A DNA stretch of 40,233 nucleotides from Escherichia phage vB_EcoP-101118UKE1, in the sequence record MZ234021.1. One strand, written 5' to 3'. Below, piece after piece: positions 3,001-39,667 of this stretch. The position numbers and the translations under genes were made by a program. The stretch's first letter is position 1. Every line of letters begins with the position of its first letter. The notes under the pieces are model-generated. The model did not search any database. It saw only the letters and a list, made by a program, of their open reading frames with translations, and was not told where the DNA came from.

Positions 3001-3303
3001 CTACCTCGTTCTCCTACAGATAAGCCTGAGCGTGCCATCGCGTATGGTGCAGCTACAAGTGACCCTGTGATGAATGTTGTTGGTAACTTCTTGGAGCAGG
3101 TTCCAGCTTTCGGATATGCTGCTAACGTTGGCGCTTCGGCTTACAACTTGGCTGGCTACCTCAAGGCTGATACTCGTGTCAACGAGCGTGACTACATGAC
3201 CGGGATGTATAATACGTTCCGTGAACTGGTTCCGAACGACCCCATTACCCAGAAGCTGCTGCTTGGAACGTTTGAGGAGCAAGGCATCCACATCAAGGAC
3301 TAA
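1..3303 (+). CDS. Internal virion (ejection) protein gp16, C-terminal 1100 aa; gene is split by the window boundary and continues from 39649..40233
   Basis: Long ORF colinear with T7 gp16 from about residue 220 onward (e.g. RSTWFGFG, TGGSP, VRSPTGMQSGASGK, GTYVPHVY, MDLWRM); stop TAA 3301-3303. Confidence 0.9.
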   Translation: MQEREDRSTWFGFGAATEAEVKNSMVGVAIRAGQTEDSLDVIGDVFNPTRWNNHKWSREELDQIRNSGVLPQYYGVITGGSPQNLTELINLALENQKLDQEKAKAGTGAQLAAGVIGAGVDPLTYVPIAGQVGKGGKLANKMFTVAAQSGALAGASEIARTSVAGGDAHVAEAIMGGALFGGGMTAIGDAIGKALGKSTNEFAGPATRLEARETARNVDGQDLSRMPIREGEETFSHQGVKFADVPNEPGSVRLEDGSILIGENPLNPKTRQVFDEVIEPERAAAGVNLGGLTEIGLKLLRSENPEIRGVAADLVRSPTGMQSGASGKIGTTASDVFERLRAVDHRFYNDIDDAVTEALKDPYFQTAFWRDSGAFRQDIYQRVSMAIEDGSGNLKAELTPGELKVYDLLKNQFDAKREMMENPAMFGRPDAQSIFPGSRFKGTYVPHVYSNQMKELYIKELGSPEALQEAIKKSWLTSYASRPEVKKRVDEALLEADPTLTPEGLAAAVDKYANDKAYGISHTEQFERSSVMEENINGLVGLENNSFLEARNLFDSDMSIVLPNGQTFSVNNLREWDMDKIVPAYNRRVNGDIAIMAGTGKTTKEMKDLVETMMNKAGDDGKLKGEVSTLRDTLKILTGRARRDGADDAAFATVMRTMTDLSFFAKNAYMGVQNLTEIGGMLARGNVRAMLHGVPIFRDLAFRNKKVGASEIKDLHNVIFGKELDDSIRPSKQDVIDRLRSYSDLGRGTATALGTAKYYTGELAVRSPFTKVLNGTTNYLLDAGRQGFLSDIVEHSLTGSKRKFDDRWLKTAGISDEQWSGIKSLIRESVTRGPDGKYTIKDKKAFSQDPRAMDLWRMGDTIADETLLRPHKLSNMDAKAYGPLAKTVLQFKNFVIKSINGRTMRTFYNATKNNRAIDAALSTVMSMGLAGIYYMAQAHVKAYAMQDGRDRDYLKQALDPTMIGYAALSRSSHLGGLLGVANILGGIAGYEDTKMLRSSILPRSPTDKPERAIAYGAATSDPVMNVVGNFLEQVPAFGYAANVGASAYNLAGYLKADTRVNERDYMTGMYNTFRELVPNDPITQKLLLGTFEEQGIHIKD

Positions 3304-3321
3304 ACTATCACTATAGGAAAC
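3299..3321 (+). promoter_or_regulatory. Phage RNAP promoter (phi17-type), +1 G at 3316
   Basis: ACTAAACTATCACTATA/GGAAAC; one of eleven copies of the core ACTATCACTATAGG. Confidence 0.8.
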
Positions 3322-5692: not shown

Positions 5693-5887
5693 ATGATTGA
5701 GTTAGACTTCAAGAATGAGGTCCTTAAAGCCTCTCCTATCGTCGGGACCGCTGCGGCTGATGGTGCCAGTCGGTTCTTCTTCGGACTTACACTGAACGAA
5801 TGGTTCTACGTTGCAGCTATCGCGTACACCGTTGTCCAGATTGGTGTGCTAGTCTACAAAACGATTAAAGGAGGTGGTAAAACATGA
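5693..5887 (+). CDS. Holin (T7 gp17.5-like)
   Basis: 64 aa, GGAGG RBS; FFGLTLNEWFYVAAIAYTVVQIG transmembrane segment nearly identical to T7 gp17.5. Confidence 0.85.
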   Translation: MIELDFKNEVLKASPIVGTAAADGASRFFFGLTLNEWFYVAAIAYTVVQIGVLVYKTIKGGGKT

Positions 5888-6147
5888 CGCAGATGGACTT
5901 AGAGAAGTTCCTCTTGATGCTTGATACTGAACGTGCTCGACTCATGCTGCAAGACTTGCGGGATGACACTAAGCGTTCACCTCAGCTCTACAACGCCATT
6001 GAGAAGCTGCTTGCTCGTCACAACTTTGTGTTAAGCAAGGTGTCTGTGGACGAGAAGGCGCTGGCTGATATGGAGGCCCTGAACGCAGAGTACGATAAGG
6101 TTCTTTCAGCGACTGAGGATAATGACACCGGGTATGGTGTTCAATAA
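5884..6147 (+). CDS. Terminase small subunit (gp18-like)
   Basis: 87 aa; ATGA start/stop overlap with holin; size, position and RSPQLYNAI motif as in T7 gp18. Confidence 0.8.
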   Translation: MTQMDLEKFLLMLDTERARLMLQDLRDDTKRSPQLYNAIEKLLARHNFVLSKVSVDEKALADMEALNAEYDKVLSATEDNDTGYGVQ

Positions 6148-6686: not shown

Positions 6687-7113
6687 TTACTACAAAGTGG
6701 ACCCGGCTAGTCCATCCGGTCTGGTCTCCGTTAGGACTGGAAAGCCTGTGGGGACATTAAGTCGGATGGGATATTGGATAGTACAGACACGAAGTCTAGG
6801 CAGTAAGCGGGCCCATCGTGTGATATGGGAACTAACCAATGGTCCTATACCGCATGGTATGCAAATAGACCACATCGACAGGAACCCTAGCAATAATACC
6901 TTAAGTAACTTACGGCTCGTTACTGCCGCTGAAAACACTTGGAATACTGGTAGCCATTATGACTCTAAGACAGGAGTGAAGTGCGTTACCCGTCACCAGA
7001 ATGGTTATAGGATTCAGGTTAAACGCGGGAATGCCTATATGCGAACAACACGTCCCACTTTAGAGGAGGCTATCGCTGTCCGGGACCTAATGCTGGAGGG
7101 ACTATATGTCTAA
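6676..7113 (+). CDS. HNH homing endonuclease
   Basis: GTG start with AAGGAGG RBS 6662-6668; motif [20 protein letters not shown] (HNH) followed by AP2-like C-terminal region; overlaps Rz end and terminase start. Confidence 0.85.
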
Positions 7114-8872
7114 GAAAACACCCGCTGAAAGACAGGCAGAAATGGTCCAAAGGATGAGGGACGACTTCGTGTTCTTCATCTTCGTTCTCTGGAAAGCACT
7201 AAGTCTTCCGGTTCCAACCCGCTGCCAGATAGATATGTGTAAGAAGCTGGCTGCTGGGGATAATCGCCGCTTCATCCTTCAGGCGTTCCGTGGTATTGGC
7301 AAGTCGTTTTTGACCTGTGGCTTTGTGGTCTGGAAGCTATGGAATAACCCAGACTTGAAGTTCATGATTGTGTCGGCCTCAAAGGAGCGAGCCGATGCTA
7401 ACTCCATCTTCATCAAGCGAATCATCGACCTCATGCCTCAGCTTCAGGAACTCAAACCTAAGCAGGGACAGCGAGATGCGGTTATTAGCTTCGACGTGGG
7501 ACCTGCCAAGCCAGACCACTCACCTTCGGTTAAGTCCGTTGGTATCACTGGTCAGTTGACTGGTAGTCGTGCTGACACCCTGATTGCCGATGACGTGGAG
7601 GTTCCGAACAACTCAGCGACTCAGGCTGCACGAGACCGTCTATCAGAGCTTGTGAAAGAGTTCGACGCTATCCTGAAGCCGGGAGGTACGATCATCTATC
7701 TGGGTACTCCTCAGAACGAGATGACCCTGTACCGTGAGCTGGAAGGTCGTGGGTACACCACTACTATCTGGCCCGCTCGTTATCCACGCGACAGGAAGGA
7801 CTGGCAGTCTTACGGCGACCGTCTGGCTCCTATGCTTCAGGCAGAGCTGGAAGAGGACCCTGAGTCCTTCTACTGGCGTCCGACTGATGAAGTACGCTTC
7901 GATGATACGGACCTGAAGGAACGTGAGCTGTCCTACGGTAAAGCTGGCTTCGCTCTACAGTTCATGCTTAACCCGAACCTGAGTGATGCCGAGAAGTACC
8001 CTCTGAAGCTCCGTGACCTTATCGTAGCCGACTTGGACCCAGCGTCCAGCCCAATGGTCTACCAATGGTTGCCGAACCCTCAGAACAAGCGTGAGGACGT
8101 TCCTAACGTTGGACTCATGGGTGACTCGTACCACACGTATCAGACTGTAGGTTCTGCCTTCAGCTCATACACCCAGAAGATTCTGGTCATTGACCCTAGT
8201 GGTCGTGGTAAGGATGAAACTGGATATGTGGTACTGTACCAGCTCAACGGCTACATCTTCGCTATGGAAGTTGGTGGCATGCGTGGTGGTTATGAAGACT
8301 CTACGCTGGAAGCCTTGGCTAAGATTGGTCGTAAGTGGAGGGTCAACGAATACGTCATTGAGGGTAACTTCGGTGATGGTATGTACCTTGAGCTATTCAA
8401 GCCTGTAGCGGCCCGTATCCATCCTGCGGCTGTAACTGAAGTGAAGAGTAAGGGTCAGAAAGAACTACGCATCTGTGACGTTCTGGAGCCTATCATGGGG
8501 TCTCACAGACTTATCGTTAACGCTGCTGCTATCGTCCAAGACTACCAGACAGCCTCTGACAAGGATGGTGTTCGTAACCCTATCTACTCTCTATTCTATC
8601 AGATGACACGTATCTCTCGTGAGCGTGGAGCCTTGGCACACGATGACCGACTTGATGCGCTGGCTATCGGTGTACAGTTCTTCGTTGAGTCGATGGCTAA
8701 GGATGCCAACAAAGGCGAACGTGAAGTAACTGAGGAATGGCTGGAGGAACAGATGGAGAACCCACGGAAAGGCTTCGAGTCCATCCACACTGAGTTCTGG
8801 GACAATGGGGTCCGGGTAACTCACGATACGGACGACGAGCTTGGACTAGGGTCATACGTTACGTTCCACTAG
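7106..8872 (+). CDS. Terminase large subunit (gp19)
   Basis: 588 aa, near-colinear with T7 gp19 ([13 protein letters not shown] Walker [34 protein letters not shown]). Confidence 0.97.
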
Positions 8873-8881
8873 CTGAATGAA

Positions 8882-8930
8882 TAACTATAGGTGAAAGCTG
8901 CATGAATAAGCAGTTAGTAACCTATAGTTA
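8882..8930 (+). repeat. 11-bp perfect inverted repeat immediately after terminase gene
   Basis: TAACTATAGGT 8882-8892 and ACCTATAGTTA 8920-8930, 27-nt spacer. Confidence 0.6.
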
Positions 8931-8966
8931 CTACCAGTCTAACATACTGTTTTACAAGGAGTTTGG

Positions 8967-8989
8967 ACTTAACTATCACTATAGGGAAG
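8967..8989 (+). promoter_or_regulatory. Phage RNAP promoter (phiOR-type, right genome end), +1 at 8984
   Basis: ACTTAACTATCACTATA/GGGAAG. Confidence 0.8.
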
Positions 8990-9169
8990 ACCCCCGGTTA
9001 CTTATAGTATTACTGTAGTGAATATACATATGCAGACTTTATGCAAGACCTTAGGAGGCAGACTCCGAGTTCTTACCTAAGGCTTGCACCGATGGAAGGA
9101 GGGTGATATTAATCATAATCCCTCCAATACAGATAGTCACCGACCATAGATACAGGAGGTATGTAGCAT

Positions 9170-9328
9170 ATGGCAAAGACCAAAGCTGTACTTAAAGCTC
9201 TGGCGACCAATCGAGCTACATACAGGTTTCTTGCTGCTGTTCTACTTGCTGCTGGCGTTACTGCTGGAAGTCAGTGGGTCGGGTGGGTCGAGACTCTCGT
9301 ATGTTCTCTGGTCTCTCAGTGTAATTAA
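9170..9328 (+). CDS. Small putative membrane protein (52 aa) in gp19.5 position
   Basis: AGGAGG RBS 9154-9159, ATG 9170, hydrophobic FLAAVLLAAGVTAG segment; not in the ORF track (<60 aa). Confidence 0.4.
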   Translation: MAKTKAVLKALATNRATYRFLAAVLLAAGVTAGSQWVGWVETLVCSLVSQCN

Positions 9329-9361
9329 CGCAATCATGGTAACGATTCATGAGCGGAAGAC

Positions 9362-9404
9362 CTAAGGTCAGTACGTGGATAAAGACTCACTATACTGACC
9401 TTAG
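9362..9404 (+). repeat. 12-bp perfect inverted repeat enclosing a T7-type promoter-like motif, ~170 bp before the terminal repeat
   Basis: CTAAGGTCAGTA 9362-9373 and TACTGACCTTAG 9393-9404; spacer contains AAAGACTCACTATA. Confidence 0.6.
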
Positions 9405-9499
9405 CTACTGTAGTCAAGGACTTTAGGTAACACCATTCAGGCTCTCACCTCTGGTCTACCTACTGATTGGTTCACTGGTCGTCATCCGATGGTCTTAGA

Positions 9500-9521
9500 C
9501 CTACGGTCCTTGACCTACAGT
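9500..9521 (+). repeat. Short CCTAC(A/G)GT repeats flanking the terminal repeat (right-end side)
   Basis: CCTACGGT 9500-9507 and CCTACAGT 9514-9521. Confidence 0.5.
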
Positions 9522-9574
9522 AGCTGGTTCCTAAGGAGGGACGATGAGTTTTGGACCAAAAGTTTGAGACCACA

Positions 9575-9755
9575 TCTCACAGTTCAAGAACCTCAAGTCT
9601 CCCCCATAGGCCCTCTTTCAGTCCAGACCAAAGGCCCTACCCCAGTCTATCATAAGGTTAGACCGATGGTCAAGACTTCAGGTCAACGATAGGTTGTGGC
9701 TATGGCTTAGGGAAGGACGATAGGTTGGGACTATGGGTCTGTCTCTGAGTCTCTA
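9575..9755 (+). repeat. Probable terminal repeat (single collapsed copy) containing the physical genome ends; boundaries approximate
   Basis: Begins TCTCACAG...CCCCCATAGG like the T7 left terminus; ends near GTCTCTGAGTCTCT followed by ATCTGTA (T7 has ATCTGTT concatemer-junction pause motif). Confidence 0.4.
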
Positions 9756-9770
9756 TCTGTATAACCATAG

Positions 9771-9861
9771 GTCCTACAACCTACAGTCCTACAACCTACA
9801 GTCTAACTAACCTACAGTATCAACCATAAGACACCAACACCTACGGTCATAGACCCACAGT
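9771..9861 (+). repeat. Array of CCTAC(A/G)GT-type direct repeats flanking the terminal repeat (left-end side), includes a 16-bp tandem duplication
   Basis: GTCCTACAACCTACAG twice in tandem (9771-9802), CCTACAGT 9811-9818, CCTACGGT 9840-9847, CCCACAGT 9854-9861; analogous to T7 CCTAAAG arrays. Confidence 0.6.
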
Positions 9862-9972
9862 TAATAGACACAAAGCTATAGACTTAAGGTCTTAAACATG
9901 TTAGTCAAAGACTATATCCTATTACACCATGGGGCCGACGATAGCTTAATCAATATTATTTAAGATTACCTA

Positions 9973-10002
9973 TTGACTACAGGTCCAGACTATGGCTTAA
10001 TA
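9973..10002 (+). promoter_or_regulatory. Putative host sigma70 early promoter (A1-like)
   Basis: TTGACT 9973-9978, 17-18 nt spacer, weak -10 (CTTAAT/TTAATA); aligns with T7 A1 region as I recall it. Confidence 0.4.
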
Positions 10003-10113
10003 GCTTCCGTCAACACGACACGGCAACAACCGGATAGTGAAGACGCCGGGTCATCCCGGTTAAGTAGACAGCCTGATAAGTCATACGAACAACAGGCAGA
10101 TGACAGAAAGTAG

Positions 10114-10143
10114 TTGACAAGATGTACCGACTTAAAGTAGTAT
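10114..10143 (+). promoter_or_regulatory. Putative host sigma70 early promoter (A2/A3-like)
   Basis: TTGACA 10114-10119, 18-nt spacer, TAGTAT 10138-10143; flanking sequence resembles T7 A3 region. Confidence 0.5.
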
Positions 10144-10272
10144 GTACCACATCAACACGAAACAACGGTGACGACCAACACTGAAACGGTCTACCTGAAG
10201 TCCTCTGACTGAAGGGAATGCTCTTTAACAATCTGGATAAACTCTTAATGTGCGCCGATAGCGACTAACTAC

Positions 10273-10302
10273 AGGGCCTTTGAGTCTACATCTGAAGGCC
10301 CT
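10273..10302 (+). promoter_or_regulatory. Putative RNase III processing hairpin (R0.3-like) before first early gene
   Basis: AGGGCCTT 10273-10280 / AAGGCCCT 10295-10302 perfect stem; followed by the GGCCCTGACTGATAGTCACTAAC box. Confidence 0.5.
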
Positions 10303-10335
10303 GACTGATAGTCACTAACTTAAAGGATGGACACT

Positions 10336-10581
10336 ATGAAACACTTAAGCACAATCACTAATCGCAATGAAGTATTCGTGAACACTAAAGGTTATGCGTG
10401 GATTCAGCTTAAAGAGATGACAGGAGCGCGTCACCGTGTGGTAGTTCGCAAGGTATCAAGCAAGCAGTTCAGCAACTACAGCGTCGATACTGTGCGTATA
10501 GACAACGAGACATACCTGATAGACTCGCAGATAACCGTGAGTCCTACAGTGGGCGTCTCAGCTCCTTATTTCGCTAACTGA
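10336..10581 (+). CDS. Hypothetical early protein (first gene after the early promoters)
   Basis: ORF 10327..10581; second ATG 10336 has better spacing from AAAGGATGG; preceded by an RNase III-type hairpin; no recognisable homolog. Confidence 0.5.
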   Translation: MKHLSTITNRNEVFVNTKGYAWIQLKEMTGARHRVVVRKVSSKQFSNYSVDTVRIDNETYLIDSQITVSPTVGVSAPYFAN

Positions 10582-10594
10582 GAGTGATTAACTA

Positions 10595-10620
10595 CAGGTC
10601 GTTAGACTGATAGCGGCCTG
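10595..10620 (+). promoter_or_regulatory. Putative RNase III processing hairpin before Ocr gene
   Basis: CAGGTC / GGCCTG stem; followed by GGCCTGACTGATAGTCACTAAC box 10615-10636. Confidence 0.45.
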
Positions 10621-10664
10621 ACTGATAGTCACTAACACATAATTAACTTTGAGAGGATATAACT

Positions 10665-11324: not shown

Positions 11325-11348
11325 CAGGTCATCAATGCTGGTGGCCTG
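11325..11348 (+). promoter_or_regulatory. Putative RNase III processing hairpin before 11381 gene
   Basis: CAGGTCAT 11325-11332 / GTGGCCTG 11341-11348; followed by GGCCTGACTGATAGTCATTAAC box 11343-11364. Confidence 0.45.
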
Positions 11349-11380
11349 ACTGATAGTCATTAACAACTGAGAGGGAAGAT

Positions 11381-12372: not shown

Positions 12373-12377
12373 TTCTG

Positions 12378-12400
12378 ACTTAACTATCACTATAGGACTC
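12378..12400 (+). promoter_or_regulatory. Phage RNAP promoter immediately upstream of the RNAP gene, +1 at 12395
   Basis: ACTTAACTATCACTATA/GGACTC, 75 nt before RNAP ATG. Confidence 0.7.
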
Positions 12401-12469: not shown

Positions 12470-15151
12470 ATGAGCGTCATCTCTATTGACAAGCACGACT
12501 TCTCTGATGTGTCGAACGCCATTGAGCCGTTTAACCTACTGGCTGACCACTACGGGCAAGACCTTGCAGTCAAACAGCTTCAGCTTGAGCACGAGGCATA
12601 CACTGAAGGCGAGCGACGTTTCATCAAGAACCTTGAGCGCCAGACCGAGCGCGGGGAACTGGCAGACAATCAGGTAGCCAAGCCTCTTATGCAGACTCTT
12701 GTTCCTAAGATTGTGCAAGCCGTCAAGGAGTGGCACGAAGGTCCAGACGGGAAGCTGTCAACCTCTCGTCCGAGCGTAGCGTTCACCATGTTGAGCACTG
12801 AAGAGAAGGCCGTAAAGGACCGCTCTTTGCGCATCTCCTGCGAATCTGCTGCGGTTATCATACTGAAGGTCATACTCTCCAAGCTGATCAAGCCTGAAGG
12901 GATACCGATTACACCGATGGCATCCGCGATAGGGCGCACACTTGAGGACGAAATCCGCTTCGGTCGCATCCGTGACAAAGAGAAAGAGCACTTCAAGAAG
13001 GCGATAGCTGATAACCTGAATAAGCGGGCCGGGGCGTCCTACAAGAAAGCCTACATGCAAGCGGTCGAGGCATCCATGCTGGAGCAAGGCCAACTGGAAG
13101 ATGCGTGGGGGACTTGGAGTCCTACAGAGGCTGTCCACGTTGGCGTCAAGATGCTTGAGATTGTCATCCAGTCAACACAACTGGTAGAGCTTAAGCGGTA
13201 CGGTGCTGGCAATGCAGCGGCTGACGTTGAGATGGTCCACCTGTCAGACTTCTGGGTCAAGAAGATGGCACAACGAGGATTCAGCCTTGCGGGTATCGCT
13301 CCAGTCTACCAGCCTTGCGTCGTTCCACCTAAGCCGTGGACCGGTGTCGTAGGAGGTGGGTACTGGGCCAAAGGACGCAGACCACTGCCACTGATTCGCT
13401 TAGGGTCTAAGTCTGCGGTGGCACGTTACGAAGACGTGTACATGCCTGAAGTCTATGACGCTGTGAATATCATCCAGAATACACCTTGGAAAGTGAACAA
13501 GAAGGTTCTGGACGTGGTGAACATGGTCGAGAAGCTGAACAACACGCCTATTGATGACATCCCTCAGATGGAACCGCTGAAGCCTGAGGACTATGCGGGT
13601 GAGACTGAAGAAGAACTCAAGGCATGGAAGAAGGCTGCTGCTGGTATCTATCGCCGCGAGAAGGCCAGACAGTCACGAAGATTGTCACTGAGCTTTATCG
13701 TCAACCAAGCGAACAAGTTCTCTCAGTTCAAGGCCATCTGGTTCCCGTATAACATGGACTGGCGTGGGCGCGTCTACGCTGTTCCGATGTTCAACCCTCA
13801 GGGTAACGACATGCAGAAGGGTCTTCTGACTCTGGCAGTCGGTAAGCCTATTGGTGCTGATGGTTTCAAATGGCTGAAGGTCCACGGTGCAAACTGCGCG
13901 GGTGTCGATAAAGTCACCTTCGAGGAGCGTATCAAGTGGGTGGAAGATAACCACGACAACATCATGGCTGCTGCTAAGGCGCCGATGGATAGTATTAAGT
14001 GGTGGGGCAAGTTAGACTCTCCGTTCTGCTTCCTAGCGTTCTGCTTCGAGTATGCTGGCGTAATGCACCACGGCTTGTCTTACTCCTGCTCGCTGCCGAT
14101 AGCGTTCGATGGGTCCTGCTCTGGGATTCAGCACTTCAGCGCTATGCTTCGCGACCACATCGGTGGACATGCAGTAAACCTGACGCCATCCGGTAAGGTC
14201 CAAGACATCTACCGAATCGTGTCTGACCGCATTGAGGAGGAGCTTAAAGTCCTACTGGTTAACGGTACGGACAACGAGATGGTAACTCACGAGGACAAGA
14301 AAACTGGTGAGATTACCGAGCGTCTCAAGCTGGGGACACGAGAGCTTGCCAGTCAGTGGCTTACCTACGGTATGTCACGAAAGGTCACTAAGCGTTCGGT
14401 CATGACTCTGGCCTACGGGTCGAAAGAGTACGGCTTCGCAGACCAAGTTTACGAGGACATCGTGATGCCAGCGATTGACTCAGGGTCTGGCGCTATGTTC
14501 ACTGAACCAAGCCAAGCATCTCGCTTCATGGCTAAGATGATTTGGGAAGCTGTGAGTGTGACCGTAGTTGCTGCGGTTGACGCGATGAAATGGCTTCAGG
14601 GTGCTGCCAAGCTGCTTGCTGCTGAAGTGAAGGACAAGAAGACTGGAGAAATCCTGAAGCCTTGTCTTCCGGTACACTGGGTCACACCTGATGGTTTCCC
14701 TGTCTGGCAGGAATACCGCAAGAAGGACACCACTCGTCTGAACCTGATGTTCTTAGGGTCATTCAACCTTCAGCCTACCGTCAACAAAGGCACGAAGAAA
14801 GAGCTGGACAAGCACAAGCAGGAGTCAGGCATTAGCCCGAACTTCGTCCACTCACAAGATGGTAGCCACCTCCGCAAGACTGTAGTCCACACGCATCGCA
14901 AGTACGGCGTGATGTCATTCGCAGTGATTCACGATAGCTTCGGGACCATCCCGGCTGACGCTGAGTATCTGTTCCGTGGAGTCCGTGAGACGATGGTCGA
15001 GACCTACCGCGACAACGATGTGCTGCTTGACTTCTACGAGCAGTTTGAATACCAGCTTCACGAGAGCCAGAGAGACAAGTTGCCTGAGCTTCCGAAGAAA
15101 GGTAAACTGAATATCGAAGACATCTTGTCTTCAGACTTTGCATTCGCTTAA
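12470..15151 (+). CDS. Single-subunit DNA-directed RNA polymerase (gp1)
   Basis: 893 aa, colinear with T7/T3 RNAP throughout (PMFNPQGNDMQKGLLTLA, FCFLAFCFEYAGV, AFDGSCSGIQHFSAM, TLAYGSKEYGF, HDSFGT, C-terminal FAFA). Confidence 0.98.
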   Translation: MSVISIDKHDFSDVSNAIEPFNLLADHYGQDLAVKQLQLEHEAYTEGERRFIKNLERQTERGELADNQVAKPLMQTLVPKIVQAVKEWHEGPDGKLSTSRPSVAFTMLSTEEKAVKDRSLRISCESAAVIILKVILSKLIKPEGIPITPMASAIGRTLEDEIRFGRIRDKEKEHFKKAIADNLNKRAGASYKKAYMQAVEASMLEQGQLEDAWGTWSPTEAVHVGVKMLEIVIQSTQLVELKRYGAGNAAADVEMVHLSDFWVKKMAQRGFSLAGIAPVYQPCVVPPKPWTGVVGGGYWAKGRRPLPLIRLGSKSAVARYEDVYMPEVYDAVNIIQNTPWKVNKKVLDVVNMVEKLNNTPIDDIPQMEPLKPEDYAGETEEELKAWKKAAAGIYRREKARQSRRLSLSFIVNQANKFSQFKAIWFPYNMDWRGRVYAVPMFNPQGNDMQKGLLTLAVGKPIGADGFKWLKVHGANCAGVDKVTFEERIKWVEDNHDNIMAAAKAPMDSIKWWGKLDSPFCFLAFCFEYAGVMHHGLSYSCSLPIAFDGSCSGIQHFSAMLRDHIGGHAVNLTPSGKVQDIYRIVSDRIEEELKVLLVNGTDNEMVTHEDKKTGEITERLKLGTRELASQWLTYGMSRKVTKRSVMTLAYGSKEYGFADQVYEDIVMPAIDSGSGAMFTEPSQASRFMAKMIWEAVSVTVVAAVDAMKWLQGAAKLLAAEVKDKKTGEILKPCLPVHWVTPDGFPVWQEYRKKDTTRLNLMFLGSFNLQPTVNKGTKKELDKHKQESGISPNFVHSQDGSHLRKTVVHTHRKYGVMSFAVIHDSFGTIPADAEYLFRGVRETMVETYRDNDVLLDFYEQFEYQLHESQRDKLPELPKKGKLNIEDILSSDFAFA

Positions 15152-15623: not shown

Positions 15624-15698
15624 CAGACATACAGTTACTGGCCCTGTGGCTGGGAGCACTCGCAGTATTCACTTTAATCCAACGCAGAAGAGGTTAAC

Positions 15699-15721
15699 CC
15701 TAAACTATCACTATAGGCTTA
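15699..15721 (+). promoter_or_regulatory. Phage RNAP promoter (phi1.1-type), +1 at 15716
   Basis: CCTAAACTATCACTATA/GGCTTA. Confidence 0.8.
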
Positions 15722-17544: not shown

Positions 17545-17565
17545 CGTACGGGCCACCAGCTAGAC

Positions 17566-17588
17566 CCTAAGCTATCACTATAGGACAA
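17566..17588 (+). promoter_or_regulatory. Phage RNAP promoter, +1 at 17583
   Basis: CCTAAGCTATCACTATA/GGACAA (one mismatch at -12). Confidence 0.75.
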
Positions 17589-18285: not shown

Positions 18286-18444
18286 ATGACTGAGGTTGAG
18301 AAGAAATACATCGTGGAGCTTGAGGGTCGCGTTCAGTCCTTCGAGGTTCCGTTGTACGCAAAGTCTCTTGAAGAGGCTACCCTGAAGTCCCAAGAGTATG
18401 AGGACGCTGGGTTTGTGGTCGGACGGATTCGCCCTGAGACCTAA
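18286..18444 (+). CDS. gp2-like inhibitor of host RNA polymerase (52 aa)
   Basis: Not in ORF track; AAGGAG RBS 18272-18277; [14 protein letters not shown]...[11 protein letters not shown] matches T7 gp2. Confidence 0.8.
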
Positions 18445-18462
18445 ACTATCACTGTAGGACAG
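18440..18462 (+). promoter_or_regulatory. Phage RNAP promoter variant (phi2.5-type), +1 at 18457
   Basis: CCTAAACTATCACTGTA/GGACAG (A to G at -3). Confidence 0.65.
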
Positions 18463-20608: not shown

Positions 20609-20824
20609 ATGATTAAACTTATCGAATTTCTTGGTCGTCTGGTGGTGCGTGGTTATCGTCGTGCTGCGGTTATGGAACGAAAGGTAGCAGAGAAGACTGC
20701 CGATGGTGCGGCTGATGCTGCTGCTCTGGCTGACAAGCTGACCATCGCGTCACTGGAAGCTGGCATGAAGGCGCGTCAGGCTGACACCAAAGCCGACCAG
20801 TTGTCTCAGGTCTTCAAAGCCTAA
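20609..20824 (+). CDS. Hypothetical Ala-rich small protein (71 aa)
   Basis: AAAGGAGAA RBS; position of T7 gene 3.8 but not HNH-like. Confidence 0.55.
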   Translation: MIKLIEFLGRLVVRGYRRAAVMERKVAEKTADGAADAAALADKLTIASLEAGMKARQADTKADQLSQVFKA

Positions 20825-20842
20825 ACTATCACCTTAGGGATG
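20820..20842 (+). promoter_or_regulatory. Phage RNAP promoter variant upstream of gene 4, +1 at 20837
   Basis: CCTAAACTATCACCTTA/GGGATG (divergent at -4/-3). Confidence 0.55.
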
Positions 20843-20889
20843 GGACCGTGAGTCCTGTCCCTCTGTTCGCATTTGTGATTAAGGAGTGA

Positions 20890-27092: not shown

Positions 27093-27218
27093 TTTACTGG
27101 GCCGGACTTCTGGCCCTTTACTGCATGTACAAGTGGTTCGGGTCGAACAACCGTCCTAAACACTAAGTCTAACCGATAGTCATATACTATCAATCCAACA
27201 GTCATCCATAGGTGAAAC

Positions 27219-27241
27219 ACTAAACTATCACTATAGGGACT
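27219..27241 (+). promoter_or_regulatory. Phage RNAP promoter (phi6.5-type), +1 at 27236
   Basis: ACTAAACTATCACTATA/GGGACT. Confidence 0.85.
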
Positions 27242-28493: not shown

Positions 28494-30062
28494 ATGGCTG
28501 AACGTGAAGGGTTCGCTGCTGAAGGCGCTAAGTCAGTTTATGATAGATTGAAGAACGGACGACAGCCTTACGAGACCCGCGCACAGAACTGTGCTGCTGT
28601 CACTATCCCGTCACTGTTTCCTAAGGAATCAGACAACTCGTCTACTGAATATACCACTCCGTGGCAAGCTGTAGGTGCTCGCTGCTTGAACAACTTGGCT
28701 GCAAAGCTGATGTTGGCGTTATTCCCTCAGTCACCGTGGATGCGACTGACAGTCTCCGAATATGAGGCCAAGACCTTGAGTCAGGACTCAGAGGCTGCTG
28801 CTCGTGTTGACGAAGGGCTTGCTATGGTCGAGCGTGTGTTGATGGCCTACATGGAGACTAACAGTTTCCGTGTGCCATTGTTCGAAGCTCTGAAGCAGCT
28901 TATCGTCTCCGGTAACTGTCTGCTTTACATTCCAGAGCCTGAACAGGGTACTTACAGTCCGATGCGGATGTACCGCTTAGTGTCTTACGTTGTTCAACGT
29001 GATGCGTTCGGTAACATCTTGCAGATTGTGACTCTCGACAAGGTAGCTTTCAGTGCTCTACCGGAAGACGTGAAGTCTCAACTCAATGCAGACGACTATG
29101 AGCCTGACACCGAGCTTGAAGTGTATACGCACATCTACCGTCAAGACGACGAGTATCTACGCTACGAGGAAGTGGAAGGGATTGAGGTAGCAGGGACCGA
29201 TGGTTCCTACCCGCTGACTGCATGTCCGTACATCCCGGTACGAATGGTTCGACTGGATGGTGAAGACTACGGTCGTTCTTACTGCGAGGAGTATCTGGGC
29301 GACCTTAACTCGCTGGAGACGATTACAGAAGCTATCACCAAAATGGCTAAGGTAGCCTCCAAGGTGGTGGGACTCGTTAACCCGAACGGTATCACGCAAC
29401 CTCGACGTCTGAACAAGGCGGCTACAGGTGAGTTCGTGGCTGGTCGCGTTGAGGACATCAACTTCCTGCAACTGACGAAAGGTCAGGACTTTACGATTGC
29501 CAAGTCGGTGGCTGACGCTATCGAGCAACGTTTAGGCTGGGCCTTCCTTCTTAATAGTGCTGTTCAGCGTAATGCAGAGCGTGTCACTGCTGAAGAGATT
29601 CGTTATGTTGCTGGCGAACTGGAGGCGACATTAGGTGGCGTGTACTCAGTACAGTCACAAGAGCTTCAGTTACCTATCGTCCGTGTGCTGATGAACCAGC
29701 TTCAGTCTGCTGGCATGATTCCTGACCTTCCGAAAGAAGCGGTAGAGCCTACGGTCTCCACTGGTCTTGAAGCGTTAGGCCGTGGTCAAGACTTAGAGAA
29801 GCTGACTCAGGCAGTCAACATGATGACCGGGCTACAGCCTCTTGCTCAGGACCCAGACATTAACTTGCCTACCCTGAAGCTGCGACTGCTGAATGCCTTA
29901 GGCATTGACACCGCTGGTCTACTCCTTACGCAGGACGAGAAGATTCAGCGCATGGCTGAACAGTCGTCTCAACAGGCAGTAGTCCAAGGTGCTGGTGCTG
30001 CTGGTGCCAACATGGGCGCTGCTGTAGGTCAGGGAGCTGGTGAGGACATGGCTCAAGCCTAA
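28494..30062 (+). CDS. Portal (head-to-tail connector) protein gp8
   Basis: 522 aa, AAGGAGGTGA RBS; position and size as T7 gp8. Confidence 0.95.
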   Translation: MAEREGFAAEGAKSVYDRLKNGRQPYETRAQNCAAVTIPSLFPKESDNSSTEYTTPWQAVGARCLNNLAAKLMLALFPQSPWMRLTVSEYEAKTLSQDSEAAARVDEGLAMVERVLMAYMETNSFRVPLFEALKQLIVSGNCLLYIPEPEQGTYSPMRMYRLVSYVVQRDAFGNILQIVTLDKVAFSALPEDVKSQLNADDYEPDTELEVYTHIYRQDDEYLRYEEVEGIEVAGTDGSYPLTACPYIPVRMVRLDGEDYGRSYCEEYLGDLNSLETITEAITKMAKVASKVVGLVNPNGITQPRRLNKAATGEFVAGRVEDINFLQLTKGQDFTIAKSVADAIEQRLGWAFLLNSAVQRNAERVTAEEIRYVAGELEATLGGVYSVQSQELQLPIVRVLMNQLQSAGMIPDLPKEAVEPTVSTGLEALGRGQDLEKLTQAVNMMTGLQPLAQDPDINLPTLKLRLLNALGIDTAGLLLTQDEKIQRMAEQSSQQAVVQGAGAAGANMGAAVGQGAGEDMAQA

Positions 30063-30080
30063 ACTATCACTATAGGAACA
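30058..30080 (+). promoter_or_regulatory. Phage RNAP promoter (phi9-type), +1 at 30075
   Basis: CCTAAACTATCACTATA/GGAACA, overlaps gp8 stop. Confidence 0.85.
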
Positions 30081-31044: not shown

Positions 31045-31067
31045 ACTAAACTATCACTATAGGGAGA
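31045..31067 (+). promoter_or_regulatory. Phage RNAP promoter (phi10-type, major capsid), +1 at 31062
   Basis: ACTAAACTATCACTATA/GGGAGA, the only copy with the full GGGAGA start. Confidence 0.9.
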
Positions 31068-31169
31068 CCAAGAGACAGACTCAAGGTTTCCCTATTACTT
31101 CAGTCCATACGGATTGGGCATACAGTAAGTAATAAACTTTATCTTTCAATTGAATAGGAGAATTATCAT

Positions 31170-35809: not shown

Positions 35810-35859
35810 AAGGGCCTATAGATTTACCTTAACTATCACTATAGGGACTATAGGCCCTT
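35810..35859 (+). repeat. 12-bp perfect inverted repeat bracketing the phi13-type promoter
   Basis: AAGGGCCTATAG 35810-35821 and CTATAGGCCCTT 35848-35859. Confidence 0.6.
35827..35849 (+). promoter_or_regulatory. Phage RNAP promoter (phi13-type), +1 at 35844
   Basis: CCTTAACTATCACTATA/GGGACT, flanked by a 12-bp inverted repeat. Confidence 0.85.
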
Positions 35860-36932: not shown

Positions 36933-39215
36933 ATGGCTAGTAATATTGAATCAGCTCTGGCTAATCGGACTATGGGTCGTGGCAGGGCTCCGGGTAAAAC
37001 TATCGCCGTCAACTATCAAGCAGCCAGCGTTCAGGCTCCAACTGGTGACTCAGGTCTGGCTCGGGCGCTAACCAACTTCGTTGAGTCTGGTACTGGATTA
37101 TACAAGCAGTTCAAAGACGAGGAGAAGACACGGGCCGACGAGCGGTCTAACGAGATTATCCGTAAGCTTACACCTCAGCAAAGACGTGAGGCTATCCAGA
37201 ACGGTACATTGCTGTATCAGGATGACCCTTACGCTATGGAAGCACTTCGAGTCAAGACGGGCCGTAACGCTGCCTTTGCGGTTGATGACGAGATTAACGT
37301 TAAGATTCAGAACGGTGAGTTCCGTACACGTCAGGACATGGAAGAGTATCGCCACCAGAGACTTCAGGACGCCGCTAAGTCCTATGCTGAAGAGGCGGGT
37401 ATTAACCCTACCGACGAGTTCTTCCAGCGCGGGTTCAACGATAACATCACAGACCGAAACATCGCTATCTATGGGTCTTTCAATAAGTATTTCAGCAAGC
37501 AGTCTGAAGAGACAGCAATGTTGAACACTCGTATTGAGATGAACTCGTTCCTTAACGATGGGGACCTGATGCGTTCGCCTGATTCTGGAAAGACCTTCAT
37601 GGCCTACCTTCGGGATGGACTGACGACTGCTGCTATCCCTTCGGACCAGCGAGCACGAGAGGTAATCACCCAGACGGTCCGTGACGCAATCCAGAAGTCA
37701 GGAGGCTCAAACTTCCTACAGCAAGTCCGTGGTGAGCGTATCAACCTTAACGGTGTGGATGCTACAGTCGAAGAGATTGTAGGACCAGATGTCTTCAACG
37801 CTGCTATTGTAGAGGCCCAAGGTACTGAGTACAAGCTGGTGGCTAAGTATCAGGAAGACTTGTCGTTAGGCGTTCAGTCTGCGATTCTTCAGGATGACCC
37901 AACCATCGGTCTGGCCCAGATTCAGAAACTCAAGGAGCAGAACAACCTGCTTCAACCGGGTGAAGAACTCACGCCTCAGCGTCAGATGCTTATTAATGCC
38001 GAAGCCAGCTTACTGGAAGCGGTCAAGCGTAAGTCTGCTGAACAAGCGAAGGAGAACACTAAGTTAATCCAGACCCAGAACAAGCAACTGGTCATCGACC
38101 AAGTGTATCAGCGACGTCTGGCTGGTGACAACGTATCCACCAACTATGAGGACCTTCCGGTCTCTGACGCTACAGGGGAGTTCAAGCGTTCAGACATGAA
38201 CAACTATGCGTCTTCCAAGCTACAGCAGATTGACCAGATGGACATCCCTGAGGCTGCTAAGGACGCTCAGAAGGTGGCATTGTTAAGAGCTGACACTAAT
38301 AACGGTCCGTTCCGTAATGCCTTCCAGACGCTGACTCAGGACGCTGCTGGTGAGTGGCAAGCTGCGGTCATCCGTGGACAGTACGACCCAGATAAGATGC
38401 AACGCTTCGAGTCTCTTCGTCGTGCCTACACTCAGGACCCTTCAAGTTTCGCTGCTCTGTATCCTGACCAAGCTCAGTTGTTCTCTACATTCGACCAGAT
38501 GGACAAAATGGGTCTAGACCCTCAGACGATGATTGAAGCTGATAAGCAAGCTGCAAGTCAAAGCCGTGAGATGCGCATGGAGTCAGACAAGGCGTGGCAG
38601 GAGTTGAAGAACGACTCCAAGAACACCCAGTTGTCTCGCCTCCCAACGTCTCTGGACTCAAGTGCTCGTAAGGTCTGGGACTCATGGTACTATCGTACAG
38701 GTAACGCTGACGCTGCAACGCAGCAGACTCAACGCTGGCTGAATGAGAACACCGTAACGTTCCAGTCTGAAGGTTCTGACGGTAAGTCCATCGGCATGGT
38801 GTCCAAACACCAGCTTATGGTCGGGGATAACCCAGAGTCGTGGCAGGTGGGTCGAGACATTATAGACACCGCTCGTCAGCAGCTCATTAAGGCCAACCCT
38901 TGGGTAGTGAACTCTCAGTTGTCCGTTGTTGAACAGAACGGCTCTATCTTCCTCCAAGACGCTACGGGGACTATTCGTATTCGATACGATAAAGAACTTG
39001 TAGGTAAACTCTACCGCGAACAACAGCAGAAGGTACAAGATGCCGCATATGCTCAGGCAGAACGTGACGCTAACAAGCGAGCGCGTATCGTCGGGACTAA
39101 AGCTGCTGGTGACAAACGTCGAGCTGACCGAGAGGCCAACATCGAGAAGCGCGGTGGGATGTACAATGACGTCTCACTGGAGGGTATCGCAAACGCACTA
39201 ATCGGTAAGGAGTAA
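36933..39215 (+). CDS. Internal virion protein C (gp15)
   Basis: 760 aa, AGAGGAGG RBS; size and position as T7 gp15. Confidence 0.9.
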   Translation: MASNIESALANRTMGRGRAPGKTIAVNYQAASVQAPTGDSGLARALTNFVESGTGLYKQFKDEEKTRADERSNEIIRKLTPQQRREAIQNGTLLYQDDPYAMEALRVKTGRNAAFAVDDEINVKIQNGEFRTRQDMEEYRHQRLQDAAKSYAEEAGINPTDEFFQRGFNDNITDRNIAIYGSFNKYFSKQSEETAMLNTRIEMNSFLNDGDLMRSPDSGKTFMAYLRDGLTTAAIPSDQRAREVITQTVRDAIQKSGGSNFLQQVRGERINLNGVDATVEEIVGPDVFNAAIVEAQGTEYKLVAKYQEDLSLGVQSAILQDDPTIGLAQIQKLKEQNNLLQPGEELTPQRQMLINAEASLLEAVKRKSAEQAKENTKLIQTQNKQLVIDQVYQRRLAGDNVSTNYEDLPVSDATGEFKRSDMNNYASSKLQQIDQMDIPEAAKDAQKVALLRADTNNGPFRNAFQTLTQDAAGEWQAAVIRGQYDPDKMQRFESLRRAYTQDPSSFAALYPDQAQLFSTFDQMDKMGLDPQTMIEADKQAASQSREMRMESDKAWQELKNDSKNTQLSRLPTSLDSSARKVWDSWYYRTGNADAATQQTQRWLNENTVTFQSEGSDGKSIGMVSKHQLMVGDNPESWQVGRDIIDTARQQLIKANPWVVNSQLSVVEQNGSIFLQDATGTIRIRYDKELVGKLYREQQQKVQDAAYAQAERDANKRARIVGTKAAGDKRRADREANIEKRGGMYNDVSLEGIANALIGKE

Positions 39216-39217
39216 AC

Positions 39218-39667
39218 ATGAAGAACGGGACAGCCAGTGAGAGACTGGCAGAACTGTCAGCAGGTGAAGAGTCTGGCTGTATCCGATTCACAGGCCACTT
39301 AGACGGAGAAGGATACGGAAGGATAATGGTCAACAGGGTCAAATACAGAGCGCATAGACTTGCTTACGAGCTTGCTAACGGTCCTATACCAGATGGGTAC
39401 GTTGTTCGCCATAAGTGCGACAACCCGTCCTGTATAAACCCAAGACACCTTGAAGTCGGTACCCAAGCTGATAACATAAAGGATAAGGTGACTAGAGGTC
39501 GCCAAGCGTTAGGATGCTTCATAGGATCGTCTAAGCTCACTGAGGAAAGTGTGCGTGATATAAGGTCCAGCAACCTAAAGGTTTCACTTTTGGCTGAACG
39601 CTATGGAGTGAGTACGGTTTCTATTAGAAATATCTTGAGGAGAAAGACATGGCGACACGTGGAGTAA
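39218..39667 (+). CDS. HNH homing endonuclease inserted between gp15 and gp16 (paralog of 22866..23267)
   Basis: TAAGGAG RBS; RHKCDNPSCINPRHLEVGTQADN motif; 3' end overlaps gp16 start. Confidence 0.85.
   Translation: MKNGTASERLAELSAGEESGCIRFTGHLDGEGYGRIMVNRVKYRAHRLAYELANGPIPDGYVVRHKCDNPSCINPRHLEVGTQADNIKDKVTRGRQALGCFIGSSKLTEESVRDIRSSNLKVSLLAERYGVSTVSIRNILRRKTWRHVE

Follow-up and report, generated by a model that had tools for sequence, protein, structure and literature searches.

The region considered here belongs to Escherichia phage vB_EcoP-101118UKE1 (sequence record MZ234021.1; the entire stretch of 40,233 nucleotides that was analysed is hereinafter called the window), in which the gene order is gp18, gp19, phiOR, gp19.5, repeat, host promoters, early genes and RNA polymerase. 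The genes and features that are relevant for this analysis are the following:

5884-6147, plus strand: gene 18, terminase small subunit (PHROG 1351, E = 1.6e-34), part of the machinery acting on the ends
7106-8872, plus strand: gene 19, terminase large subunit (PHROG 38, E = 1.2e-130)
8963-8985, plus strand: phage RNA polymerase promoter in the phiOR position, between genes 19 and 19.5 (promoter repeat family ...TTAACTATCACTATAGG)
9170-9328, plus strand: gene 19.5, last gene of the linear genome (PHROG 2193, E = 6e-25), corresponding to EcoDS1 gp19.5
9362-9404, no strand assigned: perfect 12-bp inverted repeat, CTAAGGTCAGTA (9362-9373) and TACTGACCTTAG (9393-9404), with a 19-nt spacer
9500-9521, plus strand: left-flank array of two CCTACRGT octamers (9500-9507 and 9514-9521), putative analogue of the T7 right-end short repeats
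9542-9574, plus strand: block abutting the repeat on the left, CGATGAGTTTTGGACCAAAAGTTTGAGACCACA, where the unique sequence ends ahead of the right-end repeat
9575-9754, plus strand: predicted direct terminal repeat, 180 bp, from homology to the annotated or mapped ends of relatives; right boundary 0 to +4 nt
9597-9601, plus strand: C5 homopolymer inside the repeat (C5 in 3/12 aligned relatives, mostly C4)
9686-9736, plus strand: internal 20-nt unit, ACGATAGGTTGnGnCTATGG, occurring twice (90% identity) in the repeat's right half
9755-9761, plus strand: junction motif ATCTGTA immediately to the right of the repeat, a 6/7 match to ATCTGTT of T7 and T3
9764-9861, plus strand: right-flank short-repeat array, units ending in CCTACRGT or CCATAGGT, spaced by 14-29 nt
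9973-10009, plus strand: first early promoter for the host RNA polymerase (A1 position), 34/37 bases identical to the EcoDS1 'host RNAP promoter' 469-505
10114-10144, plus strand: second early promoter for the host RNA polymerase, TTGACA-18-TAGTAT (10/12), 28/31 bases identical to the EcoDS1 host promoter 609-647
12470-15151, plus strand: gene 1, single-subunit T7-type RNA polymerase (PHROG 414, 1058.7 bits)

The genomes closest to the window are those of Kayfunavirus (K1F-like) coliphages, e.g., vB_EcoP-22664BS1 (98.1% identity across 98% of a 25-kb query). Gene 19 is located in the same position as gp19 of EcoDS1, K1F, T7 and T3, and phiOR is annotated at the equivalent place in EcoDS1, T7 and T3; members of the phage promoter family (...AACTATCACTATAGG) are scattered across the window, one of them being the 8963-8985 sequence. 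A simple sigma-70 scan makes no call for the first host promoter (9973-10009). The first early ORF is found at 10327. When the last 400 and the first 400 bases of the window are joined, the resulting sequence is contiguous in 199 phage records, within gene 16, which encodes the internal core protein. This seamless join implies that the entire genome is present, in circularly permuted form; thus, MZ234021.1 is evidently a complete genome of a Kayfunavirus (K1F-like, T7 relative) coliphage, opened inside gene 16. The record of LM33_P1, a phage with a 97% identical genome, contains no duplicated repeat; its ends (...TCTCACAC, then TTCAAGAACC...) have the appearance expected if a record with a single repeat copy were opened 8 nt into that copy.

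The segment 9575-9754, which begins with TCTCACAG, is single-copy within the window, the next best self-match being 20-22 nt long. This segment matches 246 phage records, in 164 of which at least 80% of the 180-nt query is covered, and aligns end to end, with 92-98% identity, with positions 1 to 178/179 of linear Kayfunavirus records, including K1F (two independent sequences), EcoDS1, Vec13, Peacock, Penshu1, GA2A, CR44b, LS2, LS3 and others. The annotation of EcoDS1 specifies a 'terminal repeat' at 1-178 and 39075-39252 and a 'concatemeric junction' at 177-184; positions 1-179 of Peacock are annotated as a direct terminal repeat predicted with PhageTerm (the right-end copy is absent from the Peacock record), the Penshu1 repeat is likewise annotated as a PhageTerm-predicted direct terminal repeat, and that of Vec13 is denoted 'long terminal repeat'. 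Exact repeats were checked at both record ends for EcoDS1 (178 bp), K1F (178 bp) and T7 (160 bp). For the Citrobacter phages SH3, SH4 and SH5, run-off sequencing of virion DNA yielded termini of 183, 190 and 190 bp, respectively (PMC4925675), and the terminal repeat of K1F is given as 179 bp (quoted through PMC4925675). If the concatemer junctions of the relatives are rebuilt by joining the right end, minus the repeat, to the left end, the outcome is the string that is found in the window, ...GACGATGAGTTTTGGACCAAAAGTTTGAGACCACA / TCTCACAGTTCAAGAACC ... TGAGTCTCT / ATCTGTAT... (slashes denote the repeat boundaries). In particular, EcoDS1, K1F and Peacock have, ahead of the right-hand repeat, the same 33 bases as the window to the left of 9575, and the bases to the right of 9754 are those that follow the left-hand repeat in the relatives.

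A previous reading of this DNA, made from the sequence only (hereinafter the sequence-only reading), placed the physical ends of the genome in this segment, with a single copy of a terminal repeat of about 180 bp resulting from a collapsed circular assembly. Alignment with the termini of related phages, where the segment corresponds to positions 1 to 178/179 of the linear genomes, argues for such an assignment of the ends, given the 92-98% match to annotated or mapped termini with coinciding boundaries; the single-copy status of the segment and the joining of the window ends within gene 16 agree with the rest of the proposal.

The right edge of the repeat, ...GAGTCTCT / ATCTGTAT, matches the 'concatemeric junction' of EcoDS1 and the ends of the T7 and T3 repeats. 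Among the relatives, the right ends of the IMG/VR copies read ...GAGTCTCT (Vec13 and L021), ...GAGTCCCT (SH4), ...TCTCTA (CR44b) and ...TCTCTATCT (SH3), the contigs of SH3, SH4 and SH5 ending at ...GAGTC(T/C)CT or a few bases later, so that the right boundary of the deposited relatives varies by up to 4-5 nt. Because the relatives end at ...GAGTCTCT, at ...GAGTCCCT or at most 4 bases further, the right boundary is set at 9754 and may lie up to 4 nt further right. A real repeat with boundaries other than 9575-9754, i.e., one that extends 1-4 nt into ATCT (9755-9758) or lacks the last T, appears improbable. The repeats of EcoDS1, Vec13, SH4, L021, Peacock (PhageTerm), T7 and T3 all stop directly before ATCTGT, against the SH3 contig, which ends with ...GAGTCTCTATCT (183 bp in PMC4925675), the end of CR44b in ...TCTCTA, and the K1F record, where the exact repeat of 178 nt ends with ...GAGTCTC; furthermore, the drop-off in run-off sequencing is uncertain by one to a few nucleotides, and a terminal A was discarded by the authors (PMC4925675).

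Within the repeat, the C5 tract, in place of C4 in most relatives, makes the repeat 180 rather than 179 bp long; variable poly-C tracts in T7-like repeats have been reported for Yersinia podoviruses (PMC5923468). The 20-nt unit is present at 9686-9705 and 9717-9736, and its copy number differs among the relatives, which accounts for repeats of 166-231 bp; in L022, extra copies of this unit yield a 231-bp repeat. Almost all of the 12 aligned junctions agree throughout 9542 to about 9640, with departures that include L022 and a few variable sites in the repeat; the search pattern fixed 12 nt of the 9542-9574 block and 30 nt of the region from 9542 to about 9640, and the conservation reaches well past both. 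The block itself is unchanged in 12/12 junctions except for L022 (TA in place of GG at 9553-9554), and T7 and T3 have the pattern ACCA.AAAA..TGA. in common at the same position. Thus, this block probably carries the recognition or cleavage context.

Two other elements were noticed around the left edge. The palindrome TGAGA-CCACA-TCTCA (9565-9579), which straddles the left cut site, was considered as a cleavage signal and rejected: its fold is no better than those of shuffled sequences (z = -0.75), and only 4 bp are kept in T7, with TGAAT in T3. A terminator-like match at 9527-9542 is a weak stem of 6 pairs, and one such match is expected by chance.

An ATG-initiated ORF of 67 aa (9489-9692) runs into the repeat, and many automatically annotated relatives list a 'hypothetical protein' here, which raises the question of whether the region is coding and the repeats reflect constraints at the protein level. 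This ORF shows no match to PHROG families, the C4/C5 indel falls inside it, the longest ORF across the repeat start varies from 14 to 67 aa in 12 relatives, with different starts and frames, and no gene is annotated there in the curated records of EcoDS1, K1F, T7 and T3. A coding role, already extremely improbable on these grounds, is rejected given the lack of a PHROG match and of a conserved frame and length, and the 'hypothetical protein' calls across the segment in many database records are then spurious. An Rfam search of 8850-10400 with E <= 1 identifies no known RNA family.

Membership of the segment among the terminal repeats of T7-type phages is indicated by its orthology to mapped or annotated repeats with coinciding boundaries, by its location in the non-coding DNA that separates gene 19.5 from the host early promoters and the first early gene, and by the presence of the T7-type terminase (gp18 and gp19) together with a single-subunit RNA polymerase in the same genome (PHROGs 1351, 38 and 414). 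A different packaging strategy, headful or cos, in which case the likeness of the segment to the repeats of K1F and T7 would be a relic and the ends would be located elsewhere or permuted, is very unlikely for a genome that matches a known Kayfunavirus at 98% identity across 98% of 25 kb. The T7-type gp18 and gp19 and the near identity of the repeat and both its flanks to those of relatives with mapped ends similarly speak against it.

Thus, with a probability of about 90%, the segment 9575-9754 is the direct terminal repeat of a K1F-like phage, the two physical ends of which are fused by the circular representation. The virion DNA is predicted to start at 9575 (TCTCACAG...) and to end at about 9754 (...GAGTCTCT), with the repeat present twice and a mature genome length of approximately 40,413 bp. 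Because the two copies of the repeat were collapsed into one in the assembly, the region reads like a concatemer junction; the genome can be linearised by starting at 9575 and adding a copy of the repeat at the right end.

The motif ATCTGTA is preceded by T (...TCTCT / ATCTGTA) and is located, like all genes, on the plus strand, downstream of phiOR. It therefore shares with class II pause signals the preceding A, C or T and the location on the non-template strand of rightward transcription, as well as the placement immediately to the right of the terminal repeat (compare positions 161-167 in T7, 232-238 in T3 and 177-184 in EcoDS1). The seventh position, however, differs from the strict motif: ATCTGTT, which is found directly after the repeat in both T7 and T3, is strictly conserved in the three known class II sites at which T7 RNA polymerase pauses or terminates, including the T7 concatemer junction (bioRxiv 10.64898/2026.02.12.705533, citing Lyakhov 1997 and He 1998). 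The motif that the sequence-only reading noted near 9755 is thus in the expected place but retains only six of the seven bases. To assess the relatives, IMG/VR was searched for the right edge with a 15-mer; most of the 120 matches came from unrelated contigs and were removed by a repeat-context filter, namely the presence of TCTCACAG 166-231 nt upstream of the motif. All contigs with the motif in this context contain ATCTGTA (16/16), and none contains ATCTGTT (0/16), so that the A in position 7 is not a sequencing quirk. In three genera, the core ATCTGT has exactly this placement relative to the end of the repeat. By analogy, ATCTGTA occupies the position of the pause site and is a candidate pause motif for the K1F-type polymerase; the product of gene 1 would be the polymerase that transcribes through the junction.

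Short repeats flank the terminal repeat on both sides. The window contains 14 matches to CCTACRGT, compared with 2.79 +/- 1.62 in shuffled sequences (14 was reached in 0/100 shuffles), and six exact copies, all on the plus strand, are located within 348 bp, where 0.06 would be expected (Poisson P = 6.5e-11). The two left-flank copies that the sequence-only reading listed at 9500-9521 are indeed there, and a 14-bp period (2.0 copies) spans 9491-9518. Among its five right-flank copies, four are exact, starting at 9780, 9795, 9811 and 9840, and the fifth, 9854-9861 (CCCACAGT), has one mismatch to CCTACRGT; the 16-bp tandem duplication described there is instead an array with a 15-bp period, GTCCTACAACCTACA, repeated 3.1 times at 9771-9818. 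The unit in this phage is CCTAC(A/G)G(T), with CCATA(A/G)G variants, and no CCTAAAG is detected on the plus strand in 9300-9950. In T7, about 12 CCTAAAG-like units with a 13-nt spacing are present at 175-355, and CCTAARG is found at 39621, 39658, 39671 and 39700, to the left of the right repeat. The pattern in the window, a unit of 7-8 nt on one strand in both flanks of the repeat with spacings of 14, 15, 16 and 29 nt (13 nt in T7), is that of a short-repeat array, and the parallel with the CCTAAAG arrays of T7 drawn in the sequence-only reading holds: the arrangement on the two flanks is the same, the unit is different, and the enrichment is strong. In 14 distinct relatives, the junction motif is separated from a conserved anchor (GCTATAGACTTA) by 84 to 263 bp (113 bp here), and this spread in array length points to frequent slippage or unequal exchange. 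The CCTACRGT arrays are, by analogy, the apparent counterparts of the T7 CCTAAAG arrays, i.e., slippage-prone flanking repeats.

The inverted repeat at 9362-9404 is centred at 9383, 192 bp to the left of 9575. Its DNA fold of -11.5 kcal/mol (z = -4.4) is equalled in 0/200 shuffles. The arms are invariant across 20 distinct relatives, the loop occurs in at least three versions, and the distance from the centre to the repeat is 182-192 bp in 19/20 relatives and 160 bp in EcoDS1. An inverted repeat is found also in T7 (39568-39608), centred 190 bp to the left of the repeat, with a T3 counterpart 184 bp to the left; the T7 and T3 sequences differ by compensatory changes. In 1990, Chung, Nardone and Hinkle reportedly described a 'hairpin end' of T7, proposed to be an intermediate in the duplication of the repeat, which we take to map near nucleotide 39,587, i.e., at the T7 inverted repeat. 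The position of the inverted repeat in the window, centred approximately 190 bp to the left of the left-end site, is that of the 'hairpin end', although its arms show no similarity to the T7/T3 palindrome (AGGGATTC...ATCCCT). By analogy, it is regarded as a candidate equivalent of the 'hairpin-end' palindrome of T7.

Under the T7 paradigm, which is established knowledge and from which the steps of the mechanism are inferred, the replicated genomes would join through the repeat to form concatemers, with one repeat per junction. The phage RNA polymerase, moving rightward from phiOR (8963-8985), would reach ATCTGT just past the repeat and pause, and the pause would mark the junction for the gp18/gp19 terminase and the proheads. 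The terminase would cut at the repeat boundaries, and repair synthesis would duplicate the single repeat, leaving one copy at each daughter end; the duplication might proceed via a fold-back primed at the inverted repeat 9362-9404. An insertion screen in T7 fits this mechanism: most of the genome-end loci tolerate insertions, and the only end positions that scored as essential, 142 and 162, flank ATCTGT (PMC11482910).

The same observations have to be weighed against a different reading, in which the octamer arrays and ATCTGTA do not contribute to the formation of the ends: the arrays would be neutral slippage filler, and the motif would be conserved only as part of a site cleaved or recognised by the terminase, rather than as a polymerase pause site. 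We consider this possible, though doubtful. The array length of 84 to 263 bp among the 14 relatives indicates that the copy number is not fixed, insertions are tolerated at most of the T7 end loci (PMC11482910), and position 7 of the pause motif is changed in every member of the K1F group. However, the octamer sequence, its strand and the two-sided placement are kept across T7, T3 and the K1F-like phages despite the turnover, ATCTGT is placed identically after the repeat in the three genera, and the sole essential-scoring end positions of T7 are next to this motif. A more general, tentative proposal, to which we assign a rather low likelihood, is that the K1F group has kept the end-processing architecture of T7 and replaced each of its sequence elements, namely the junction motif (ATCTGTA), the palindrome at about 190 bp and the array unit. 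If so, the K1F-type RNA polymerase would have a shifted class II pause specificity, and the position of the fold-back, not its sequence, would be required for the duplication of the repeat.

K1F-type terminal repeats and the logic of the T7 concatemer junction have been on record for decades. The feature described here is already known, as the region of K1F-like phages that comprises the terminal repeat and the junction, and its identity to annotated examples is 92-98%. Accordingly, it adds little to the biology of these phages, and its modest extra value is comparative and comes from the invariant ATCTGTA, the inverted repeat that keeps its position about 190 bp to the left of the terminal repeat, though not its sequence, across three genera, and the hypervariable arrays.

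Among the known systems, the closest ones are the repeats of Kayfunavirus, i.e., those of K1F (178/179 bp), EcoDS1 (178 bp), Vec13 (179 bp), Peacock and Penshu1 (179 bp), SH3 (183 bp), and SH4 and SH5 (190 bp). The repeat in the window shares with these the full-length identity of 92-98%, the first bases TCTCACAGTTCAAGAACC, the last bases ...TGAGTCTCT, both flanks including ATCTGTAT, and the location downstream of gene 19.5 and ahead of the host early promoters. It differs by the one extra C (180 compared with 179 bp) and by its own pattern of flanking copies, including the 15-bp triplication; only two of the three host promoters annotated in EcoDS1 follow the repeat. The single copy found here is due to the circularisation of the record.

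The sequence-only reading likened 9575-9610 to the first bases of T7 DNA, and the T7 repeat start (TCTCACAGT) is indeed identical in its first nine bases, with CCCCCATAGG matching exactly at about position 27 (9601-9610 in the window), but the likeness does not extend to the whole repeat, which is only 62% identical and is 180 bp long compared with 160 bp in T7. In both phages, a CT-rich tract ends the repeat and is directly followed by ATCTGT, heptamer or octamer arrays with a 13-15 nt spacing are present on the same strand on both sides, phiOR is located upstream, and an inverted repeat is centred about 190 bp to the left of the repeat. The distinct features are the array unit, CCTACRG(T) here and CCTAAAG in T7, the junction motif, ATCTGTA and ATCTGTT, respectively, and the inverted repeats, which are unrelated in sequence and have perfect 12-bp arms with a 19-nt loop here and imperfect 19-nt arms with a 3-nt loop in T7. 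Unlike the case of T7, no phiOL-type promoter is recognised in the interval from the repeat to the first host promoter.

The T3/phiYeO3-12 group has repeats of about 230 bp; the T3 repeat is 231 bp long and 60% identical, and it is associated with the ATCTGTT motif and with the unit C(C/T)TAAAG. The first 18 bases are nearly identical (TCTCATAGTTCAAGAACC in T3 and TCTCACAGTTCAAGAACC here), followed by CCCCATAG..CCCTCTT, and T3 similarly has ATCTGT after the repeat and an inverted repeat 184 bp to its left.

The window opens (1 / 40233) inside gene 16, whose product is the internal core protein and includes a transglycosylase domain. In 199 related genomes the sequences of its two ends run on without a break, and a self-comparison of the window detects no overlap of at least 8 nt between its termini. 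The record of LM33_P1 (LT594300.1), a phage that is 97% identical, contains no duplicated repeat and its ends read ...TCTCACAC, then TTCAAGAACC... Judging by these sequences, it looks like a one-copy record that opens 8 nt within the repeat, so that its first base would not be the physical end.

One open reading frame crosses the genome terminus:

9489-9692, 67-aa ORF with an ATG start

Many automatically annotated relatives carry "hypothetical proteins" at this position. The ORF belongs to no PHROG family, and neither its frame nor its length is conserved among the relatives; these calls are probably spurious.

The promoter consensus of vB_EcoP-101118UKE1, AACTATCACTATAGG, derives from phage-RNAP promoter-like sites that share ...CTAAACTATCACTATAGG(G/A)A:

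3292-3318, phage-RNAP promoter-like site
8963-8985, phage-RNAP promoter-like site
12374-12396, phage-RNAP promoter-like site
15692-15718, phage-RNAP promoter-like site
17559-17585, phage-RNAP promoter-like site
18433-18459, phage-RNAP promoter-like site
20817-20855, phage-RNAP promoter-like site
27212-27238, phage-RNAP promoter-like site
30051-30077, phage-RNAP promoter-like site
31046-31076, phage-RNAP promoter-like site
35828-35858, phage-RNAP promoter-like site

The loop of the inverted repeat at 9362-9404 contains, at 9383-9399, the sequence GACTCACTATA, which differs from this consensus and is identical to the T7 promoter core; the bases after it are CTGACC rather than GGGAGA. In K1F-type relatives, the loop sequence is unrelated to the T7-core-bearing one.

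No phage promoter of the phiOL type was seen in the stretch that separates the repeat from the first host promoter. The first early gene begins about 570 bp after the end of the repeat (9755-10330), compared to about 810 bp in EcoDS1, and only two of the three host promoters annotated in EcoDS1 have homologs in the window (9973-10009 and 10114-10144). A repeat of about 30 nt, GGCCTGACTGATAGTCACTAAC..., is present in three copies, each a short way upstream of the start codon of an early gene:

10291-10320, GGCCTGACTGATAGTCACTAAC... repeat
10608-10637, GGCCTGACTGATAGTCACTAAC... repeat
11336-11365, GGCCTGACTGATAGTCACTAAC... repeat

This element may serve in processing, or else as a cassette for translation initiation.

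Two leftward matches to sigma-70-like promoters were identified, the second of which falls within the terminal repeat:

9417->9389, minus strand, TTGACT-17-TATAGT, 10/12
9673->9644, minus strand, TTGACC-18-TAGACT with an upstream TG

These matches can be compared with the leftward host promoter A0, which in both T7 and T3 is annotated in or close to the repeat.
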